A stretch of 64,000 nucleotides of DNA from Escherichia coli (GTDB lineage: Bacteria; Pseudomonadota; Gammaproteobacteria; Enterobacterales; Enterobacteriaceae): assembly GCF_046105845.1 (NCBI RefSeq), contig NZ_CP151004.1; one strand, written 5' to 3'. The translations under genes and the position numbers were made by a program. This document shows positions 33,884-50,929 of the stretch, piece after piece. Within the stretch, counting starts at the first letter, position 1. Each line of letters begins with the position of its first letter. The notes under the pieces are model-generated. The model did no database searches. It was given only the letters and a program-made list of their open reading frames with translations, and was not told where the DNA came from.

Positions 33884-34636
33884 TTATCTCGTCACTTTTC
33901 TTAATTGCACCTCAGCATATGCTTCTTCCTGCCAGCACTTTGTAACCAGTTTATCAATGACATCTGCATATCCTTTGTACCACTGATAATCAGTCAGGTC
34001 TGGTACCAGCTTCTGGACATGACACCGCGCCAGTGTCGTTGGTAAACGACTAAACCGGTTTCCATTGCAACGCCCACAAATCTTATAAACAGGCGCGCCA
34101 TGAAGCCGGGTCCTTTTTTCATCCAGGACAATACCTTTACCCTTACACCCTCTGCACGCTGTGCTGACTTCTCCCTTACCATGACAATGCTGACATAGTT
34201 CCTTCACCCACTCTTCCTTGATAACAGACTCCCCGCTTCTGGAGTATTTCACCACTTCGCGCAATACATTATGAAATCCAGTACCAGCACAAGGCTCACA
34301 GCGAGCCTTACTTGCCGCAGACCTGGAATAATCAGCAAAGGCAAAACTCACAAGGTAAGGGATGATCTGTAACCGGATTTCTTCACTCAATTTGTTCAAT
34401 GTCGGGTTATCCAGTGCCATCGCGTAATTGAGCAGACCTTCAATCGCAAACTGAGGATCCTGAACGCCAGCTTTTGCCAGGAATAAGGCAAACCCAAGCG
34501 GTGCTTTCGACTGCACCATCCCCTGCGCAGCCATCACATCCGTAATCGTTAAACCACCTGAGCCTGTCGCCGGTGCGGCATCACTCAATTTTGGAGATTT
34601 TGGGGAGTAATATTTTGGTAAGGCTTCAAGGTTCAT
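33884..34636 (-). CDS. Late-gene antiterminator Q (QuuD/QuuQ type)
   Basis: From MNLEALPKYY...; Cys-rich zinc-binding region CEPCAGTGF...CQHCHGKGE...CRGCKGKG...CGRCNGN. Confidence 0.8.
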   Translation of the reverse strand: MNLEALPKYYSPKSPKLSDAAPATGSGGLTITDVMAAQGMVQSKAPLGFALFLAKAGVQDPQFAIEGLLNYAMALDNPTLNKLSEEIRLQIIPYLVSFAFADYSRSAASKARCEPCAGTGFHNVLREVVKYSRSGESVIKEEWVKELCQHCHGKGEVSTACRGCKGKGIVLDEKRTRLHGAPVYKICGRCNGNRFSRLPTTLARCHVQKLVPDLTDYQWYKGYADVIDKLVTKCWQEEAYAEVQLRKVTR

Positions 34637-34649
34637 GCTCGTTCTCCAC

Positions 34650-35645
34650 TTACGCCAGTACGCCAATTGCCAGCGCACGATCGATAAAACGAAATATCAG
34701 CTCCAGTTGGGAGCCATACTTCTCTTCAAATGTCACGGTATCCGCATGCAGCTCGTCGTGATGCTTTCTGCACAAAGGCAACACAAAGAGATCATGCGCT
34801 TTTGTACCCATTCCACCCTGACCGTGGCCTATCAGGTGGTGGGGATCATCAGCTGGCTTTCCACAACATGCGCACGGCTGCGTCTTAACCCAGCGCGTGT
34901 ACTTTTCATTAACCCAGCGGCGACGTTTGGGGCGTAACATAAAAGACTCCGGCGACTCCGGATCCACTTTCAGCGCCAGCACCTTTTTCGCTTTATCCTG
35001 GATGATGCTGGTGGCAGGAACCGAAGGCACAAGGTCACTTTCCCGGGTGACAGATGGCACAACAGGCTTCGGTAATCTCAGTGCCTTACGGGCTGCACTT
35101 TCCGGTAAGGCATCCGCCAAATCATTACGAACCAGCCACCAGCACAGTTCCGGCATTGTCACAACGTGACTGTCATCAAAACCGAGATCCCGACGCACGA
35201 CAGACAACACCCAGCGGGCACAGTTATCCGTTGCCATTGATTCCAGCCGTTCCGTGAACTGGTCACGCAGCTGGTTATCGCAGTGCCAGCACAGACGAAT
35301 TGCTCCCGGAGCGTGCCGCATTGTGGTCATGTTCTCGCTGTGCCAGTCGGAATGAGGCCACTGACAGCCCTTTTCACGAAGTAACCAGCTTTCAAGACAT
35401 TCCACGCCACCAGCACGACGGATCACTGCCTCATTGCGGAACACGGCCCGAACGGCAGGATCATCCGCCAGCGGTTGTGATGCCGCCGGAACGGCACCAC
35501 TGGCGAAAGATGAATAACGTTCCGGCTCAGGCTCCAGCAGGACACGCCCCTGCATAAACAGGGGCATCAGCTCTGAACCTGGCCTGAACAATACAATCCC
35601 CATACGCGGGGCAATTTCAGGGGTCAGTAGTGCTCTCACGGTCAC
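34650..35645 (-). CDS. YdfU-like protein (DUF968)
   Basis: 331 aa; C-terminal ...CACCGKPADDPHHLIGHGQGGMGTKAHDLFVLPLCRKHHDELH; Qin-like position upstream of Q. Confidence 0.75.
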   Translation of the reverse strand: MTVRALLTPEIAPRMGIVLFRPGSELMPLFMQGRVLLEPEPERYSSFASGAVPAASQPLADDPAVRAVFRNEAVIRRAGGVECLESWLLREKGCQWPHSDWHSENMTTMRHAPGAIRLCWHCDNQLRDQFTERLESMATDNCARWVLSVVRRDLGFDDSHVVTMPELCWWLVRNDLADALPESAARKALRLPKPVVPSVTRESDLVPSVPATSIIQDKAKKVLALKVDPESPESFMLRPKRRRWVNEKYTRWVKTQPCACCGKPADDPHHLIGHGQGGMGTKAHDLFVLPLCRKHHDELHADTVTFEEKYGSQLELIFRFIDRALAIGVLA

Positions 35646-38718: not shown

Positions 38719-39547
38719 GACGATGCCCTCCGCTGATATTCAGGAGACGGTGAATATGAAAATTAGCCTTATCCGCCAGACGAATACGTTCAGCCTGCAA
38801 GTTAAGAAGGGTTTCTACCAAAACCTGATGCGCCTGCGGATCCGAAAGAGTTACCTTGCGCAGAGCACGTAGTGCAGTTGTTACATAACTGAGTTTATGT
38901 AAGTCTTCATCATTCAGACGAGTGAGGGCTGGGACAGTAGCCATGATGGCAGCCTCCGATAACAGTGAATTACCTTCACCACCGGAAACGCCAATTTCGC
39001 TGGTGGTGAACTGAACGGGGTTGGCGTAACCGGCGTTATCGGAAACCGGCGCACCTTTCGGTGCCCCCGTCCAGCCCACCATAATTTGGGTGTGCACAGA
39101 CACAGACGATAAAAAAGACGCTGGCGCGTCATATATCGCCGATAACATTTCCAGGACGCCAATCCCGTCACCCGCTTTATAAGGTGCCTGAACAGTGTAA
39201 CGTCCCGGAATGGCAGAATCAATGTGCTGGTGGTCCTTCACACTCAACAAAATCACGCCTGAATTTCCACAAAGGACTAAAGCACTCATGCGGGTAGTCT
39301 TTGCGAAGATAGATAACGCGCTGTGTTTCTGGTTCCCAACGAATAACATGGACATAAAGCCCTCTTCCGTCACGAAACCAGCGGTTAAGTTCCCGCACAA
39401 CTCGCCCCCCACAGTCAGGTAAAGTTCTCTGTGGTTACTTACAGCCAGGTGATTTGGTAATCTGCATTCATGCCGTAACAACAGGTGTTCAGCGACACTG
39501 ACCACCAGCTGTTGCGACAAACGGTTATTTGCCGTTAAACTGTTCAT
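38711..39547 (-). CDS. Hypothetical phage early protein
   Basis: 278-aa ORF in the cro-proximal early-right operon. Confidence 0.5.
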   Translation of the reverse strand: MNSLTANNRLSQQLVVSVAEHLLLRHECRLPNHLAVSNHRELYLTVGGELCGNLTAGFVTEEGFMSMLFVGNQKHSALSIFAKTTRMSALVLCGNSGVILLSVKDHQHIDSAIPGRYTVQAPYKAGDGIGVLEMLSAIYDAPASFLSSVSVHTQIMVGWTGAPKGAPVSDNAGYANPVQFTTSEIGVSGGEGNSLLSEAAIMATVPALTRLNDEDLHKLSYVTTALRALRKVTLSDPQAHQVLVETLLNLQAERIRLADKANFHIHRLLNISGGHRHA

Positions 39548-40107
39548 GCGTTAGTTTCTCCACAGACACAAAACGCCACGACGCCCGGAGCTGCACACTC
39601 GCGGGCGTCACTCTTTTCTGGAGCGCAAAAGATTTTGTAGACCAGTGCTGCATGCTCTTGGAGCTTCGAAATTGACAGATACAACTCATCATTAATTGCT
39701 GTCTGCTCGTGTGGCTCCACGACCCCATCTTCGATTGCCGAACGAATCTGCTTTGAGTAATTCCCGATCTGTTCGATGACTTCCAGCAGGCGCTGGTTTA
39801 TATCGGCGTTCTCTACTTCCTCAATTTCAGGAAGCGATACGAACACCCCACCAGCAGACTGTGCGACAGCATCCGCAATGTAGTGAGTGTCAGCCGCGCG
39901 CTGTAAAACCATTGCCCATCCCAGCGGGAAAATCTGATCGCCATCGGCACGAAGGCGGTTAAATAATGCGTTCTCTGTTACATCCAGCCAGTCAGCTGCT
40001 TCAGCGTAACCACCCGGCAACGCTGCGATAGTTTTTCTGACAGCTTTCACGTACCACTCAGGCTGTTTTTCTACTTTCCAGTGATACTTACCCACGGTTA
40101 GCCTCAT
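39544..40107 (-). CDS. Hypothetical early regulator (YdaT/CII-like position)
   Basis: 187-aa ORF immediately downstream of cro; family not confirmed. Confidence 0.45.
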   Translation of the reverse strand: MRLTVGKYHWKVEKQPEWYVKAVRKTIAALPGGYAEAADWLDVTENALFNRLRADGDQIFPLGWAMVLQRAADTHYIADAVAQSAGGVFVSLPEIEEVENADINQRLLEVIEQIGNYSKQIRSAIEDGVVEPHEQTAINDELYLSISKLQEHAALVYKIFCAPEKSDARECAAPGVVAFCVCGETNA

Positions 40108-40138
40108 CGTTCTGTGGTTAAAAATTGAAGGTGTTCTG

Positions 40139-40339
40139 TTAATCTTTCGGATAGATATCCGGTCTTAAGTCAGATTTCGTAATTGCACCTGACGTGCATT
40201 GCTCAAGTTTTTTCGCCAGCACAAAACTGGCTTTTTTATAACCATTGAAAACCAGCCGTAAGTAGCCAGGTGTTGAGCCAACTTTTCCGGCCAACTCGCC
40301 CTGCTGTTCTTTGGTTAAAGAGTCCCAATACGCTTTCAT
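40139..40339 (-). CDS. Cro-like HTH repressor (YdaS-type)
   Basis: From MKAYWDSLTKEQQGELAGKVGSTPGYLRLVFNGYKKASFVLAKKLEQ with GGAGG RBS; divergent from cI. Confidence 0.6.
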   Translation of the reverse strand: MKAYWDSLTKEQQGELAGKVGSTPGYLRLVFNGYKKASFVLAKKLEQCTSGAITKSDLRPDIYPKD

Positions 40340-40429
40340 ACAATATGTACCTCCAGTATACATATTACATGATTGAAATGAACCTTCAAGATACTTGTAC
40401 CTTATCGGTACAAAGGTTTTAATTTCGTT
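40340..40429. promoter_or_regulatory. cro-cI intergenic switch with palindromic operator-like sites
   Basis: Imperfect palindromes ATATGTAC-ctccag-TATACATAT and CTTGTACC-ttatc-GGTACAAAG sharing a TGTAC core. Confidence 0.5.
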
Positions 40430-41104
40430 ATGAAAACAATCCATGACATCCGGCGGTCTAACGCCAGAAAACTGAGAGATGGTGTTGGCGGAAATTCATC
40501 CTTTGCCACCATGATTGATCGCGAGCCAACCCAAACCAGCAGGTTTATGGGGGATGGCGCTACTAAAAATATCGGTGACAGCATGGCACGGCACATCGAA
40601 AAATGTTTCGACCTGCCTGTCGGATGGCTTGATCAAGAACACCAGACAACGAACATCACAAAAAAACCTGATGTTTCAATCACTAACAAACAAATAACGT
40701 TAGTCCCTGTCATATCATGGGTACAGGCCGGAGCATGGAAAGAAGTTGGCTATTCTGAGGTTGATTTGAGCACAGCAGAAACGTATCCCTGCCCTGTACC
40801 CTGTGGCGAAATGACTTATATCTTGCGGGTGATTGGTGATTCAATGATTGATGAGTACCGCCCTGGAGACATGATTTTTGTTGATCCCGAAGTCCCTGCC
40901 TGCCACGGTGACGACGTTATTGCATTGATGCACGATACAGGCGAAACCACCTTCAAGCGATTGATAGAAGATGGAACACAGCGTTATCTCAAAGCATTAA
41001 ACCCAAACTGGCCTGAGCCTTACATTAAGATTAACGGTAATTGCTCTATAATTGGTACAGTGATTTTCTCGGGAAAACCAAGAAGATACACAATAAAGGC
41101 CTAA
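40430..41104 (+). CDS. CI-type repressor (HTH plus S24 LexA-like peptidase domain)
   Basis: C-terminal ...VISWVQAGAWKEV...LRVIGDSMIDEYRPGDMIFVDPE...TFKRLIEDGTQRYLKALNPNWPEPY... closely parallels the lambda CI C-domain with Ser and Lys catalytic pair. Confidence 0.85.
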   Translation: MKTIHDIRRSNARKLRDGVGGNSSFATMIDREPTQTSRFMGDGATKNIGDSMARHIEKCFDLPVGWLDQEHQTTNITKKPDVSITNKQITLVPVISWVQAGAWKEVGYSEVDLSTAETYPCPVPCGEMTYILRVIGDSMIDEYRPGDMIFVDPEVPACHGDDVIALMHDTGETTFKRLIEDGTQRYLKALNPNWPEPYIKINGNCSIIGTVIFSGKPRRYTIKA

Positions 41105-41116
41105 TCAATATTTATG

Positions 41117-41140
41117 AACCTGCTTCGGCAGGTTTTTTTA
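41117..41140 (+). terminator. Rho-independent terminator after cI
   Basis: AACCTGC-ttcg-GCAGGTT followed by TTTTTT. Confidence 0.65.
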
Positions 41141-41589
41141 TACTTGACAATGTACCTATGAGATACATAATGTATCCAAAAGAAACATGAGGCAGGCAAG
41201 ATTCAAACAAAATTTGGTTGTAACACGGCGTATGGCACATGCGTCGTTAGCGGTCTGGGGACGTTAAAGGGGACAATCCACTCCTTGCTAGGGCAAACAA
41301 ACCAGGTAGCCGGAATGTGCAAGTCAATGATGATGCTGATAAGACGCCTAACCAGCGTGGCGATCCGGTTTGACGCCTGGGAAGAGACCAGGGTGCAACG
41401 ATGAGGGCATTTATGGAGCCGCGACAAAGTGTGGTGCCGTAACTGGCTAAGTGCTCTCAGCGTTGTGGTCATCCGCGAAATGGCGCGGCGGTAAGTATGG
41501 CTGGGTTACTCTTTCCCCGTTGAGGACACCGGATTGTCAGGTTGACCATACGCCTGAGTGACAACCCCACCACAACAGCCACTGCTTTG

Positions 41590-41635
41590 GCGGTACCAGT
41601 TTGTACACTTGCTTCCGGCTGGTACCGCTCTTTTT
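41590..41635 (+). terminator. Rho-independent terminator-like hairpin in the cI / early-left intergenic region
   Basis: GCGGTACCAG (41590-41599), 19-nt loop, CTGGTACCGC (41619-41628), then TCTTTTT. Confidence 0.5.
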
Positions 41636-41724
41636 ACAAAACAGAGAAGAGCATCACCGGACGACGGGCTCATAACCCAATCCATCCGGGCGGCTGCCAC
41701 CGCAGGTGTTCTTCTCTGTTTTGT
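41636..41724. repeat. Perfect 15-bp inverted repeat with 59-bp spacer
   Basis: ACAAAACAGAGAAGA (41636-41650) and TCTTCTCTGTTTTGT (41710-41724). Confidence 0.6.
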
Positions 41725-41772
41725 GGAGAAACCAACCGACCTTGCAGGGTCGATATGATGAGGAGCAGCAAA

Positions 41773-42135
41773 ATGGCTAGCGAACGCAGTACTGATGTGC
41801 AGGCATTTATCGGGGAGCTGGACGGCGGCGTATTTGAAACCAAAATCGGCGCAGTTCTCAGTGAAGTCGCTTCCGGTGTGATGAACACGAAAACCAAAGG
41901 TAAGGTCTCACTCAACCTGGAAATCGAACCATTTGATGAGAACCGTGTGAAAATCAAACACAAACTCTCATATGTTCGCCCGACTAACCGCGGGAAAATT
42001 TCCGAAGAAGACACCACCGAAACGCCGATGTATGTCAATCGCGGTGGTCGCCTGACTATTCTGCAGGAAGACCAGGGACAATTACTGACTCTTGCCGGTG
42101 AACCTGACGGAAAACTACGCGCAGCAGGTCATTAA
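41773..42135 (+). CDS. YfdP-like early protein (hypothetical)
   Basis: Start at 41773 after an AGGAG RBS, 120 aa; upstream part of ORF track 41542..42135 spans the terminator hairpin. Confidence 0.55.
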   Translation: MASERSTDVQAFIGELDGGVFETKIGAVLSEVASGVMNTKTKGKVSLNLEIEPFDENRVKIKHKLSYVRPTNRGKISEEDTTETPMYVNRGGRLTILQEDQGQLLTLAGEPDGKLRAAGH

Positions 42136-42200
42136 TATCGTTCTTAATTAACTGATTATTTATCTCATCACTGAATATCTTTATATAGTGAGGACTTATT

Positions 42201-43025
42201 ATGTCTCAGAACTTAGACGCAACCGCAATTAATCAAATCCATGCCCTTATTTCTGCTCAGGGTGTTAATGAAATTATCAGTAAGATTGGTGCCGATGCTG
42301 TGGTATTGCCTGAGAATTTCCGCATTCATGATCTGGAAAAATTTAATTTAAATCGCTTCCGTTTCCGTGGTGCGCTTTCCACTGCCAGCATCGATGACTT
42401 TACCCGTTATTCTAAAGATCTTGCAGATGAAGGCACCCGCTGCTTTATCGATGCTGATAATATGCGTGCCGTCAGTGTACTTAACCTGGGTACTATTGAT
42501 GAACCAGGTCACGCAGATAACACCGCCACTCTCAAACTGAAAAAGACAGCACCGTTCTCTGCCCTGTTGTCTGTTAACGGCGAGCGTAACTCCCAGAAGT
42601 CACTGGCAGAATGGATTGAAGACTGGGCCGACTACCTTGTGGGCTTTGATGCTAATGGTGACGCTATTCAGGCAACAAAAGCGGCTGCGGCAGTCCGTAA
42701 AATCACGATTGAAGCAAACCAGACCGCTGATTTTGAAGATAATGACTTCAGCGGCAAACGCTCCCTGATGGAATCTGTCGAAGCGAAGACCAAAGACATT
42801 ATGCCAGTGGCATTTGAAATTAAATGCGTTCCGTTTGAAGGTCTGAAAGAACGTCCGTTTAAATTACGCCTCAGCATTATCACTGGCGATCGTCCTGTAC
42901 TGGTTCTGCGCATTATTCAGCTGGAAGCGGTGCAGGAAGATATGGCTAACGAATTTCGTGATCTGCTTGTTGAGAAATTCAAAGACAGCAAAGTAGAAAC
43001 CTTTATTGGTACTTTCACCGCCTGA
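42201..43025 (+). CDS. YfdQ-like protein (DUF2303-type)
   Basis: 274-aa ORF; family assignment by recollection of CPS-53 synteny yfdP-Q-R-S-T. Confidence 0.6.
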
Positions 43026-46143: not shown

Positions 46144-47367
46144 TCAGTTTGAATCAGAGATAGTACAATTAACAATCGATTCAACCCTCTTCCACCATGC
46201 CAGGTAAGCTTTACGCTGTTCTTCTAGATAATCGCTCTTATCATAAACTTGCCATACCCCTGGCAGCTTATGACCAAGCATAATTTCTGCGATATGAGGC
46301 GCAGTAAGATCAGAAAAATTTGTTCGTGCTGTCCGTCTCAAGTCATGAAGAGACCAATGAGGGAATTGATATCCTAAACGCCGCCACGCGTACTGCATTA
46401 AATTGTAAGGCAGCGACTGTAATGATGTCCTACCGACTGGCTCCCTGCTTCCTTCCTTAGTAAAAAGCATATCGGAACCGTTGTTCATAGAGATAACGTA
46501 TTTTATAAGCTCTTCAACCGGTTCAATAATGGGCCGCTTTAGCGGTTCGCCTGTTATGTCCCCTGTCTTATGTCGTTCAGGTGGTACAGTCCATACCTTA
46601 TTTATGAAATCAAAATCACCCACCCTAGCAGTAATTAGCTCCGAACTACGGCAACCAAAATGCAGTAATAGTTTAATGAAGGCCCGGTATTTGGGAACCA
46701 TTCTAGAGCCATCGATCGCAGCATAAAGAATTTTAATTTCATCGTGTGTCAGAAACCGTTTCTTCTGACCTTTACGGATATCCATATCTTTACCCGTGAT
46801 ATCCGACAGCGGGCGAGTTTCAATAAGCTTTCTCTTATACGCCCAGACATGGGCCTGCTTTGCGTTAATTAGCAATCGGTCTGCTATTGCTGGAGTCTTA
46901 GTGCTAAGAGGCTCCAGGACTTCTAACCAATCATGCAATGTAGCTGCATCGTGAGGGATATTCCCGATTTTAGAGAACAGGTGCAGCTCAAACGAGCGGA
47001 GTATCTGTTCAGAACCCTTTTTATTTTTTACACAATATGCTTCATACCAGGCACGGATCACAGACTCTACCGTCATGGCTTCAGTAGCTTTTCGTTTTTC
47101 AGCCTGCTTGACCAATCGTGGATTACGGTTTGACTCGAGTTCACCACGGAGACGGATAACTTCTTCTCTGGCCTCTTTTAATCCAGTTGCCGGGTAAGTT
47201 CCGATATCAAGACGCTCACCTTTCCCTGCCCATTGATAACGATATTGAAACACTACGCGACCTTTCGGTGATACTCTGACAGACAGACCATCACGATCGG
47301 ATTTAACCAAAACCTTATCACGTTCCTTTCCAACGACTGAACGCAACCACGCATCAGACAGCGCCAT
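46144..47367 (-). CDS. int: Tyrosine integrase (P4-like, arm-binding N-domain)
   Basis: 407 aa; N-terminal ...LSVRVSPKGRVVFQYRYQWAGKGERLDIGTYPATGLKEAREE; C-terminal ...HDLRRTARTNF...IMLGHKLPGVWQVYDKSDY. Confidence 0.9.
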   Translation of the reverse strand: MALSDAWLRSVVGKERDKVLVKSDRDGLSVRVSPKGRVVFQYRYQWAGKGERLDIGTYPATGLKEAREEVIRLRGELESNRNPRLVKQAEKRKATEAMTVESVIRAWYEAYCVKNKKGSEQILRSFELHLFSKIGNIPHDAATLHDWLEVLEPLSTKTPAIADRLLINAKQAHVWAYKRKLIETRPLSDITGKDMDIRKGQKKRFLTHDEIKILYAAIDGSRMVPKYRAFIKLLLHFGCRSSELITARVGDFDFINKVWTVPPERHKTGDITGEPLKRPIIEPVEELIKYVISMNNGSDMLFTKEGSREPVGRTSLQSLPYNLMQYAWRRLGYQFPHWSLHDLRRTARTNFSDLTAPHIAEIMLGHKLPGVWQVYDKSDYLEEQRKAYLAWWKRVESIVNCTISDSN

Positions 47368-47376
47368 TACTCACCT

Positions 47377-47433
47377 TGTACAAATCGCAAAACACCTCTG
47401 CTGCTTTGTACATTATGTACAAGCATATGTACA
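47377..47433. repeat. Cluster of four TGTACA hexamers upstream of int (possible arm or operator sites)
   Basis: TGTACA at 47377, 47407, 47416 and 47428. Confidence 0.4.
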
Positions 47434-50606: not shown

Positions 50607-50693
50607 GCGAAGGTGGCGGAATTGGTAGACGCGCTAGCTTCAGGTGTTAGTGTCCTTACGGACGTGGGGGTTCAAGTCCCCCCCCTCGCACCA
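50607..50693 (+). tRNA. leuQ: tRNA-Leu (anticodon CAG)
   Basis: GCGAAGGTGGCGGAATTGGTAGACGCG...CTTCAGGTG...GGTTCAAGTCCCCCCCCTCGCACCA; long variable arm; first of three tandem copies. Confidence 0.95.
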
Positions 50694-50721
50694 AAAACCA
50701 CGTTGATATTGCTCGCACTGG

Positions 50722-50808
50722 GCGAAGGTGGCGGAATTGGTAGACGCGCTAGCTTCAGGTGTTAGTGTTCTTACGGACGTGGGGGTTCAAGTCCCCCCCC
50801 TCGCACCA
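50722..50808 (+). tRNA. leuP: tRNA-Leu (anticodon CAG)
   Basis: Second tandem copy, one substitution in the variable arm (GTGTTC vs GTGTCC). Confidence 0.95.
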
Positions 50809-50842
50809 AACGAGGCGATATCAAAAAAAGTAAGATGACTGT

Positions 50843-50929
50843 GCGAAGGTGGCGGAATTGGTAGACGCGCTAGCTTCAGGTGTTAGTGTCCTTACGGACG
50901 TGGGGGTTCAAGTCCCCCCCCTCGCACCA
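50843..50929 (+). tRNA. leuV: tRNA-Leu (anticodon CAG)
   Basis: Third tandem copy, identical to the first. Confidence 0.95.

Follow-up and report, generated by a model that had tools for sequence, protein, structure and literature searches.

The question raised by this locus is what is encoded by the 632 bases (41141-41772) that lie between the CI-like repressor gene and the first early-left gene of a lambdoid prophage in a 64,000-nucleotide (nt) stretch of Escherichia coli DNA (contig NZ_CP151004.1; hereafter the window). An earlier note, made from the letters of the window, had seen no convincing open reading frame (ORF) here, had pointed out a hairpin with a T-run followed by a perfect 15-bp inverted repeat, and had suggested that these paired structures could be a nut/put-like antitermination RNA, a long operator pair or a small RNA. 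Comparison with related phages and prophages indicates that the early-left operon has this interval as its transcribed, non-coding head, and that the RNA modules of the interval are shuffled among hundreds of enterobacterial temperate phages. The phages mEp460, cdtI and 2H10 and an Stx2c phage are examples of others with the leader of the window. We consider it probable that it is the non-coding 5′ part of the pL transcript of an N-less lambdoid prophage, encoding a modular cassette of stable RNAs after about 50 bp of promoter and operator. A unit of this kind usually ends in a conserved hairpin and U-tract of the DicF type (module D), and the 15-bp inverted repeat closes a tRNA-like three-way junction with the anticodon arm of initiator tRNA (module C). 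All RNA features described below lie on the plus strand.

The conserved A domain in a mosaic leader

BLAST searches of phage genomes and complete E. coli genomes split the 632 bases into pieces with separate distributions. Query positions 72-332 (module A) recur in P1-like elements, in the epsilon15-like phages phiV10, SPN1S, BUCT711 and 65FD, and in lambdoids such as mEp390. Positions 322-444 (module B) recur in the Qin prophage of K-12 and its relatives, and positions 428-632 (D, C and the start of the next gene) in SfII, SfIV, SfV and ST64B-like phages. At least part of the interval has a match in 4702 of 5426 complete E. coli genomes. Sibling prophages are arranged as A-B-D-C, as A-B′-D-C, or as a shortened A with another insert. 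The plan common to many phages is an A core that includes helix P5, then helix P6, then helix P7 with its cargo, and finally the terminal hairpin D. A hairpin AUCACG...CGUGAU and a conserved spacer usually stand between cargo and terminal hairpin; the window has neither. Both the A domain, of about 175 nt, and this mosaic, whose modules also occur at the Qin dicF locus, in P1 and in epsilon15-like phages, had been overlooked in the earlier note.

The A core (41221-41398) forms a conserved RNA domain with pseudoknots, supported by covariation and matched by a covariance model, R1, that was built from the alignment of its copies. It comprises helices P1 (41226-41230 with 41242-41246, loop UAUGGCACAUG), P2 (41250-41257 with 41303-41310), P4 (41344-41347 with 41355-41358) and P5 (41376-41380 with 41388-41392, closing the invariant loop GAAGAGA), together with two pseudoknots, PK1 (GCACAU at 41235-41240 with AUGUGC at 41315-41320) and PK2 (CACC at 41350-41353 with GGUG at 41367-41370). 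We extracted 243 copies of A, 150 of them distinct, and reduced these to 48 representatives below 93% identity; a 43-sequence alignment was used for covariation. A total of 76 full-length copies could be aligned. The long invariant stretches UAUGGCACAUG, GGUAGCCGGAAUGUGCAAG, CACCAUCGUGGCGAU, GGUGUGAC and GGAAGAGA stand between helices that change in sequence yet keep their pairing, and about 60 bases of the core are invariant.

Under the curated structure, 96.1% of the cells in the 43 sequences were paired, and 16 of the 35 pairs had changed on both sides (122 cells). In 500 shuffles, none of the five covariation measures was reached even once, and 3′ partners that had been slid out of register paired at only 26-40%. 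P1, P2, P4 and P5, as well as a further helix, P2b, are each supported by covariation, and an independent covariation scan recovered all five of them along with PK2. In nine sequences, one of them that of the window, PK2 has undergone a double change from C-G to A-U and still pairs. PK1 is invariant on both sides, so covariation speaks neither for nor against it. A long-range pairing proposed by alifold (columns 7-9 with 104-106) was dropped because the local P1 hairpin has compensatory changes. Two G-U pairs of A (columns 33-88 and 34-87) occur in 43 of 43 sequences and would be A-C mismatches on the opposite strand; thus the constrained molecule is the plus-strand RNA and not a site in duplex DNA.

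Model R1 found a single copy of A in the window (132 bits) and none in Qin, HK022, SfV or ST64B. A search of window positions 40000-43000 against Rfam 15 gave no match over A at E≤10, the only overlap being CC0196 on the minus strand at chance level (14.6 bits, E = 5.9), and scans of 20 homologous loci at the Rfam gathering thresholds returned nothing over A. Conserved 15-mers of A gave no match in a literature search, and searches for pL-leader RNAs gave only work on DicF, STnc100 and Pas, although the P1 genome paper or a 1994 paper on dicF homologues may contain an older description. We conclude that the A core is a genuine, strongly constrained structured RNA of the plus strand, belonging to a family that has no Rfam match and is restricted to phages and prophages of Enterobacteriaceae.

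The distribution of A was examined in several collections. Pattern scans of IMG/VR viral contigs recovered at least 240 copies, with at least 120 loci in each of two scans. A third of complete E. coli genomes (1832 of 5426) carry A, and 554 of the places lie on plasmids. Among the matches listed, 39 of 40 have no annotation over A and the remaining one is annotated as a hypothetical protein. In 100,044 species-representative genomes A was found in 24 contigs, always at full length; 22 of these are from Enterobacteriaceae or Erwinia, and the other two are short metagenome-assembled contigs binned as Bacillota and Lachnospiraceae, which are probably mis-binned enterobacterial phage DNA and not a sign of a wider host range. 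The surroundings of A differ as well. In P1-like elements it directly follows a tRNA(CAU) gene and ends 88 nt before ban, whereas in epsilon15-like phages it directly precedes tRNA-Arg(UCU). A simple scan found no consensus promoter ahead of the phiV10 and P1-like units. We also observed that SfV (locus positions 790-870) and ST64B (640-720) have another conserved 5′ domain, CAGGCAGGACGCCCACGAAGUAGCCGCC..GGCAUAYGAA..GGAUGAUUCG, at the position of A, which may represent a second, alternative family of leader RNAs.

We weighed the possibility that part of the interval is protein-coding. Three frames came into question: a 197-amino-acid (aa) extension of the yfdP-like gene from the ORF at 41542, a minus-strand ORF of 89 aa over A (41203-41472), and a minus-strand ORF of 37 aa that coincides with B (41469-41582). 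These frames are open, the one over B is open in most copies, and some GenBank records annotate hypothetical proteins here. However, the distance from a conserved RNA motif to the yfdP-like ATG is 105, 106, 107, 109 or 133 nt in homologues, which amounts to all three phases, such that the frame through C differs among them, and phage Flotzy has a stop one codon upstream of this ATG. Indels disrupt the ORF over A in the copies of phiV10 and the P1-like elements. As for B, its frame has no conserved start codon and is shifted in one copy, and almost all nucleotide differences between the two B types are non-synonymous. The view that no convincing ORF is present therefore held up, and we give a coding role for any of the three frames almost no weight. 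Folding and covariation across relatives, which the earlier note had put forward as a check, instead revealed a non-coding interval rich in RNA structure.

Scaffold helices, cargo and the terminal hairpin

Downstream of the A core, helix P6 (41396-41465) is formed by CAAC-GAUGAGGGCAUU (41396-41411) and AAGUGCUCUCAGC-GUUG (41449-41465) and encloses a variable insert. Across units, CAAC-GAUGAGAGCAUU pairs with AAGUGCUCUCAGC-GUUG in many compensatory variants, and 168 of 174 form a duplex at −8 kcal/mol or better; the P6 fold of the window has a z score of −2.3. Helix P7 (41462-41576) pairs GUUGUGGU (41462-41469) with ACCACAAC (41569-41576) and encloses module B (41470-41568). P7 is opened by GUUGUGG and closed by CCACAAC across units, and this closing helix covaries (C-G to U-A), while the interior of B is nearly invariant. 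A nut-like reading of 41452-41492, with GUGCUCUCA as boxA and the hairpin CCGCG-AAAUGG-CGCGG as boxB, was rejected: GUGCUCU, the stretch resembling boxA, forms the 3′ strand of the covarying P6, and some units have unrelated sequence in its place.

What P7 encloses differs from unit to unit. In epsilon15-like and some lambdoid units the cargo is tRNA-Arg(UCU), whose acceptor stem replaces the P7 helix; in many other units it is a domain starting GAAUGCGCAGGCUGAUGCGCG; and SfV, ST64B and sibling prophages have an STnc100-type domain in this slot. Thus P6 and P7 are a scaffold for interchangeable cargo, namely tRNA-Arg(UCU), an STnc100-type domain or, in the window and Qin, module B. Module B occurs as two types that are about 86% alike and is highly conserved in sequence; we treat it as putative RNA cargo.

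The P6 region also showed other replacements. In two loci (L161 and L164), 20-190 nt past the A core, P6 is swapped for an apparent short protein-coding insert (AGGAUGACCAUGGAAUACGAAUUG...), which is followed by the usual hairpin and D. Two others (L036, 5256-5538, and L176) have P6 inserts with two hairpins whose loops resemble those of tRNA T-arms (CUGG-UUCAAUU-CCAG and GUCCG-UUCGAUU-CGGAC). Such inserts point to tRNA fragments as a component used repeatedly in the making of these leaders.

The hairpin with a T-run that the earlier note had placed at 41590-41635 is module D (41585-41635). Its perfect 10-bp arms (41590-41599 and 41619-41628) are part of a 13-bp stem in the RNAfold structure (41589-41601 with 41617-41629), followed by a tail of C and UUUUU at 41630-41635 (U-run 41631-41635). 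The energy is −21.2 kcal/mol (z = −4.4), and none of 200 shuffles folded equally well. A terminal hairpin GGCGGU-NN-CAG...CUG-NN-ACCGCC followed by CUUUUU-ACA comes after A in most units. Its stem covaries, position 7 being A-U, G-C or C-G and position 8 being C-G, G-C or A-U.

Module D and its surroundings resemble the dicF locus of Qin in several respects. The roughly 100 nt immediately upstream of Qin dicF align with the window from the 3′ strand of P6, of which Qin has a remnant, through P7 and module B at about 90% identity (about 86% in an ungapped comparison). The 3′ part of DicF aligns with D, with UUUGGCGGUAYCAGUUU and CCGCYCUUUUU in common as well as the hairpin and U-tract, and both lie at the end of a long untranslated stretch in an early operon that reads away from the repressor gene. 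In contrast, the DicF 5′ seed UUUCUGGUGACG is deleted from D in the alignment with Qin and the loop differs, whereas the base of the hairpin and the U-tract are kept; Qin, for its part, is without an A core. The Rfam DicF model (RF00039, gathering score 48 bits) had no match at E≤10 in window positions 40000-43000, although the same search gave 76.7 bits for Qin DicF. By alignment and map position, D is a positional and partial sequence homologue of DicF. RNase E generates the 5′ end of DicF by cutting a polycistronic transcript within a long untranslated part, termination or RNase III produces the 3′ end, and Qin expresses dicB past DicF (PMC5069750). We also noted a stretch in a P1-like element (L002, 3199-3215), just past A and upstream of ban, in which UUUUCUGGUGAUGAC resembles the DicF seed that D of the window is without.

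A second family of prophage small RNAs follows the same layout. The Rfam consensus of STnc100 (RF02076) has a closing helix UGGUGAAU...CACCA around its cargo and then a terminator hairpin, which is the order P7, cargo and D of the window. The P7-cargo-D segment of SfV scored 39.5 bits against this model (E = 2e-7), below the gathering score of 47 bits; SfV D and C together are about 97% identical to those of the window. The window has B as cargo instead and gave no STnc100 match in the E≤10 search. A copy above the threshold (89.7 bits) is present elsewhere in one of the homologous loci (L212). STnc100 and PasD are both small RNAs encoded by prophages and have terminators at their 3′ ends, and PasD was among the Hfq-bound RNAs identified by RIL-seq and validated by northern blotting; they have been described near Q and lysis genes, and not with an A-type 5′ domain (bioRxiv 10.64898/2026.05.13.724894). 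A small RNA, as the earlier note had suggested, is a reasonable reading of the hairpin; the inverted repeat closes a tRNA-like element.

The tRNA-like element and its prophage setting

Module C (41636-41724) is a Y-shaped element of 89 nt. The inverted repeat, ACAAAACAGAGAAGA at 41636-41650 with its exact reverse complement at 41710-41724, is present as first described and is part of a 20-bp closing helix (41636-41655 with 41705-41724). A search of the 64 kb for the 15-mer found only these two arms, even with 2 mismatches allowed (0.16 matches expected). Arm 1 (41657-41661 with 41685-41689) ends in the tip GGG-CUCAUAA-CCC (41666-41678), and arm 2 is a short GC hairpin (41690-41693 with 41700-41703). 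The element folds at −45.5 kcal/mol (z = −7.3). The Y shape is kept in ST64B, 118970_sal3, Klebsiella Kp4866-6, Flotzy and SfV, with closing stems that differ at several paired positions, and is also found in the phages GZ7 and PA-1.

The sequence GGGCTCATAACCC / GGGCUCAUAACCC in C is the anticodon arm of E. coli initiator tRNA, which is present in four copies per genome annotated as tRNA-Met, and the tip is identical to the anticodon arm of tRNA-fMet, including its three G-C pairs. C nevertheless differs from a tRNA in being a three-way junction and not a cloverleaf, with a closing helix of 20 bp instead of 7, and the motif varies in relatives (CUCAUUA in ST64B, AAUCC in GZ7). Neither ARAGORN nor the Rfam tRNA model called a tRNA or transfer-messenger RNA in 41000-42000, C included. 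Two relatives bear on where C comes from. Klebsiella phage GZ7 (L275, 1208-1278) has an unannotated GGCCUGA...CAGGCC-ACCA with the C core, in which a 7-bp acceptor-like stem is followed by an ACCA end; it lies after tRNA-Asn and tRNA-Arg, downstream of Q. In Pantoea phage PA-1 the C core is within a P6-type stem that is followed by GUUGUGGUGAAU. The C stem of the window (AGAAGAGCAU / GUGUUCUUCU) and the GUUUUGUGGAGAA that follows it resemble P6 and GUUGUGG, so that C looks like a second copy of the scaffold with a tRNA-derived insert. C is just ahead of the ribosome-binding site of the yfdP-like gene: a small hairpin CGACCUUGCAGGGUCG (41738-41753) and the Shine-Dalgarno sequence GAGGAG (41760-41765) precede the ATG at 41773 of this gene, a member of phrog_204 (feature 41738-41775).

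Such tRNA-derived pieces raise the possibility that recombination has merely left a collection of decayed tRNA and small-RNA genes in the leader, whose only function would be spacing and termination. The mosaic organisation with alternative inserts, the tRNA-like pieces in C and in some inserts (an anticodon arm and T-arm-like hairpins), and the lack of a fold signal in B would all fit this idea. However, helices stay paired through compensatory changes across lineages that are 70-80% identical, long stretches of A are invariant in backgrounds as unrelated as P1, epsilon15-like phages and many lambdoids, and A was full length in every one of the 24 contigs from species-representative genomes. 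We consider decay quite improbable as an explanation of the region.

The promoter and operator of the early-left operon take up about 50 bp at the start of the interval. A pL-like sigma-70 promoter, TTGACA-16-CATAAT (41144-41171, plus strand), matches the consensus at 11 of 12 positions, and transcription is predicted to start at about 41178. SfV has the same promoter downstream of its cI gene. The exact operator TGTACCTATGAGATACA (41151-41167) sits within the spacer of pL, and a weaker repeat follows at 41170-41188. The operator pattern that we derived, TGTAC-N7-RTACA, occurs exactly only at 40346, 40396 and 41151 in the window; the first two are between cro and cI and the third is the one in the pL spacer. 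The expectation that the interval holds pL and its operators was thus correct as regards pL and one exact operator, but these are confined to 41144-41171, and the paired structures flagged in the earlier note are not operators.

A reading of the hairpin and the 15-bp inverted repeat as operators for repressor looping, or as a nut/put-like site, could draw on their position downstream of pL and on the single TTGTACA in the hairpin loop, and on nothing else. TTGTACA, which had been taken for an operator motif, occurs 8 times in the window against 7.2 expected, a chance frequency; the copy in the loop of D has no second half-site, and the pattern TGTAC-N7-RTACA is absent from both structures. Moreover, both structures covary in distant homologues, varying in sequence while their pairing persists, as RNA helices do and sites for DNA-binding proteins do not. 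The modules also occur away from repressor genes, both in units of epsilon15-like phages and downstream of Q in Klebsiella phage GZ7. No N gene was found among the main ORFs beside the repressor, and the HK022 put regions share nothing detectable with the leader. We therefore regard operators or a nut/put-like site as extremely unlikely at these two structures. Elsewhere in the window, four overlapping copies of the palindromic TTGTACA are crowded into 47 bp (47376-47422) immediately upstream of where the minus-strand integrase gene (46144-47367) starts, and this cluster could be an attachment-site or int-regulatory feature.

The CI-like repressor gene (40430-41104, plus strand) matches PHROG family phrog_4, and its intrinsic terminator (41116-41139, plus strand) was located by a terminator scan just outside the interval. 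On the minus strand are the Cro-like gene (40139-40345) and the CII-like gene (39544-40107), followed in the right operon by an O-like replication gene, RusA, a Q-like antiterminator (33884-34678) and then the lysis genes. The early-left genes are, in order, yfdP-like (41773-42135), yfdQ-like, yfdR-like and others, up to the integrase. Three tandem tRNA-Leu(CAG) genes at 50607-50929, about 3 kb past the integrase, are presumably host genes near the end of the prophage.

Function of the leader and its relation to known systems

We propose that, on derepression, polymerase starting at about 41178 would make an RNA of about 458 nt and would mostly stop at D. Host RNases would then cut this RNA, as they do dicF and tRNA precursors, and would free a D-type Hfq-binding small RNA together with a stable RNA of the A domain. 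Read-through of D would yield a yfdP-yfdQ-yfdR mRNA with the very stable C at its 5′ end, where C could serve as a stabiliser or as an RNase III site. Several points weigh against this proposal. The start site, termination at D, processing, stability and Hfq binding, as well as whatever A or C may do, are all inferred from sequence. The A core folded alone has a z score of −0.84 and thus no thermodynamic signal, so that its case is carried solely by covariation. The interior of module B has neither covariation nor a fold signal (z = +0.38). To read D as an Hfq-binding small RNA would be to extrapolate from relatives, as D fails the Rfam DicF model at E≤10. Finally, most lambdoid copies (27 of 38) have a same-strand operon about 100-200 nt past D, and this would also fit cis antitermination by A.

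Cis antitermination is the main rival. Here A would be a processive antiterminator RNA like HK022 put, which would carry polymerase from pL through D and later terminators and would thus replace N. The position is suggestive: A sits 107-165 nt past CI-like repressor genes of several immunity types, and in at least 17 of 49 representatives transcription from pL reaches A before anything else, the place of nutL and putL. No N-like protein came out of PHROG searches with the main ORFs that flank the repressor, the only antiterminator being the Q-like protein of 33884-34678. Of 48 representatives, 37 have an intrinsic terminator no more than 400 nt downstream of A, two terminators in tandem precede the next gene of phiV10, and the same-strand ORFs after D in 27 of 38 copies point the same way. 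The restriction to Enterobacteriaceae and the roughly 60 invariant bases would fit binding to a conserved host machine. On the other hand, A is missing from SfV and ST64B, which share pL, D, C and yfdP with the window, and Qin expresses dicB past DicF without A. Each genome has one copy of A and none on the pR side; in the window, the single R1 match leaves no pair of put-like copies past pL and pR. Some epsilon15-like units have no same-strand gene downstream at all. In three of these (L147, L206 and L192) the unit of A, tRNA cargo and D directly abuts a convergent terminase gene, which means that A is not there only for the expression of downstream genes. On balance we find it unlikely that A is a put-like antiterminator.

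A riboswitch-type sensor, in which a ligand of A would decide whether transcription ends (at P6 or D) or continues into the early-left genes, is a further alternative that we rate as highly improbable. A does resemble large aptamers in its size, pseudoknots and invariant junction nucleotides, and in some units P6 with a U-run resembles a terminator 67-98 nt past A. However, no conserved expression platform overlaps the aptamer, D of the window is 190 nt downstream with interchangeable cargo between, and A is also present in stand-alone tRNA units and before ban without a terminator.

Returning to the stable-RNA cassette, the most likely role of A, in our view, is that of a functional RNA domain of the cassette, which would either act in trans as a stable RNA or be needed to make or stabilise the cargo; it is less likely that A exists solely to carry polymerase through D. 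A bolder proposal, which we put forward tentatively and at slightly less than even confidence, is that A with P6 and P7 constitutes an undescribed class of large structured RNA in temperate phages of E. coli, Salmonella and Klebsiella, P1 and epsilon15-like phages among them, with a biochemical function of its own. DicF and STnc100/PasD would then be its 3′ modules, and C a mimic of the initiator anticodon arm that acts on translation initiation. Such an RNA might, for example, bind RNA polymerase, the ribosome or an RNase, or it might be a chassis that expresses and protects interchangeable tRNA or small-RNA cargo.

These findings matter in three respects. Although E. coli and its phages have been mined heavily for non-coding RNAs, a covarying domain of about 175 nt that is carried by roughly one in three complete E. 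coli genomes, by P1-like plasmids and by epsilon15-like phages has remained nearly unannotated. DicF, STnc100/PasD and phage tRNAs, which have been treated separately so far, are joined by this architecture in one cassette with a common chassis, and the shared chassis suggests how prophage small RNAs arise and are swapped. In N-less lambdoids the A RNA would be the first product of pL after induction and thus in a good position to influence the host or early expression.

Among known systems, the antitermination sites of lambdoid phages are closest in position. Like HK022 put and lambda nut, the leader is directly downstream of pL and upstream of terminators, and no N gene precedes the first terminator. 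HK022 put consists of two stem-loops of about 70 nt, whereas A is about 2.5 times that size, is pseudoknotted and occurs in stand-alone tRNA units as well. When the A profile was run with nhmmer, nothing significant appeared in the HK022 immunity region, and R1 gave nothing there; the leader also does not combine boxA and boxB with a cognate N, as a lambda-type nut site does.

GOLLD and ROOL are large structured RNAs associated with phages that are often found beside tRNAs or contain them. The leader of the window differs from both in being smaller, in having Enterobacteriaceae as hosts, in ending with a terminator of the small-RNA type and in having no Rfam match to either. It is like them in being a multi-domain, phage-borne non-coding RNA that combines a constant with a variable domain and has tRNAs embedded in it or adjacent to it.

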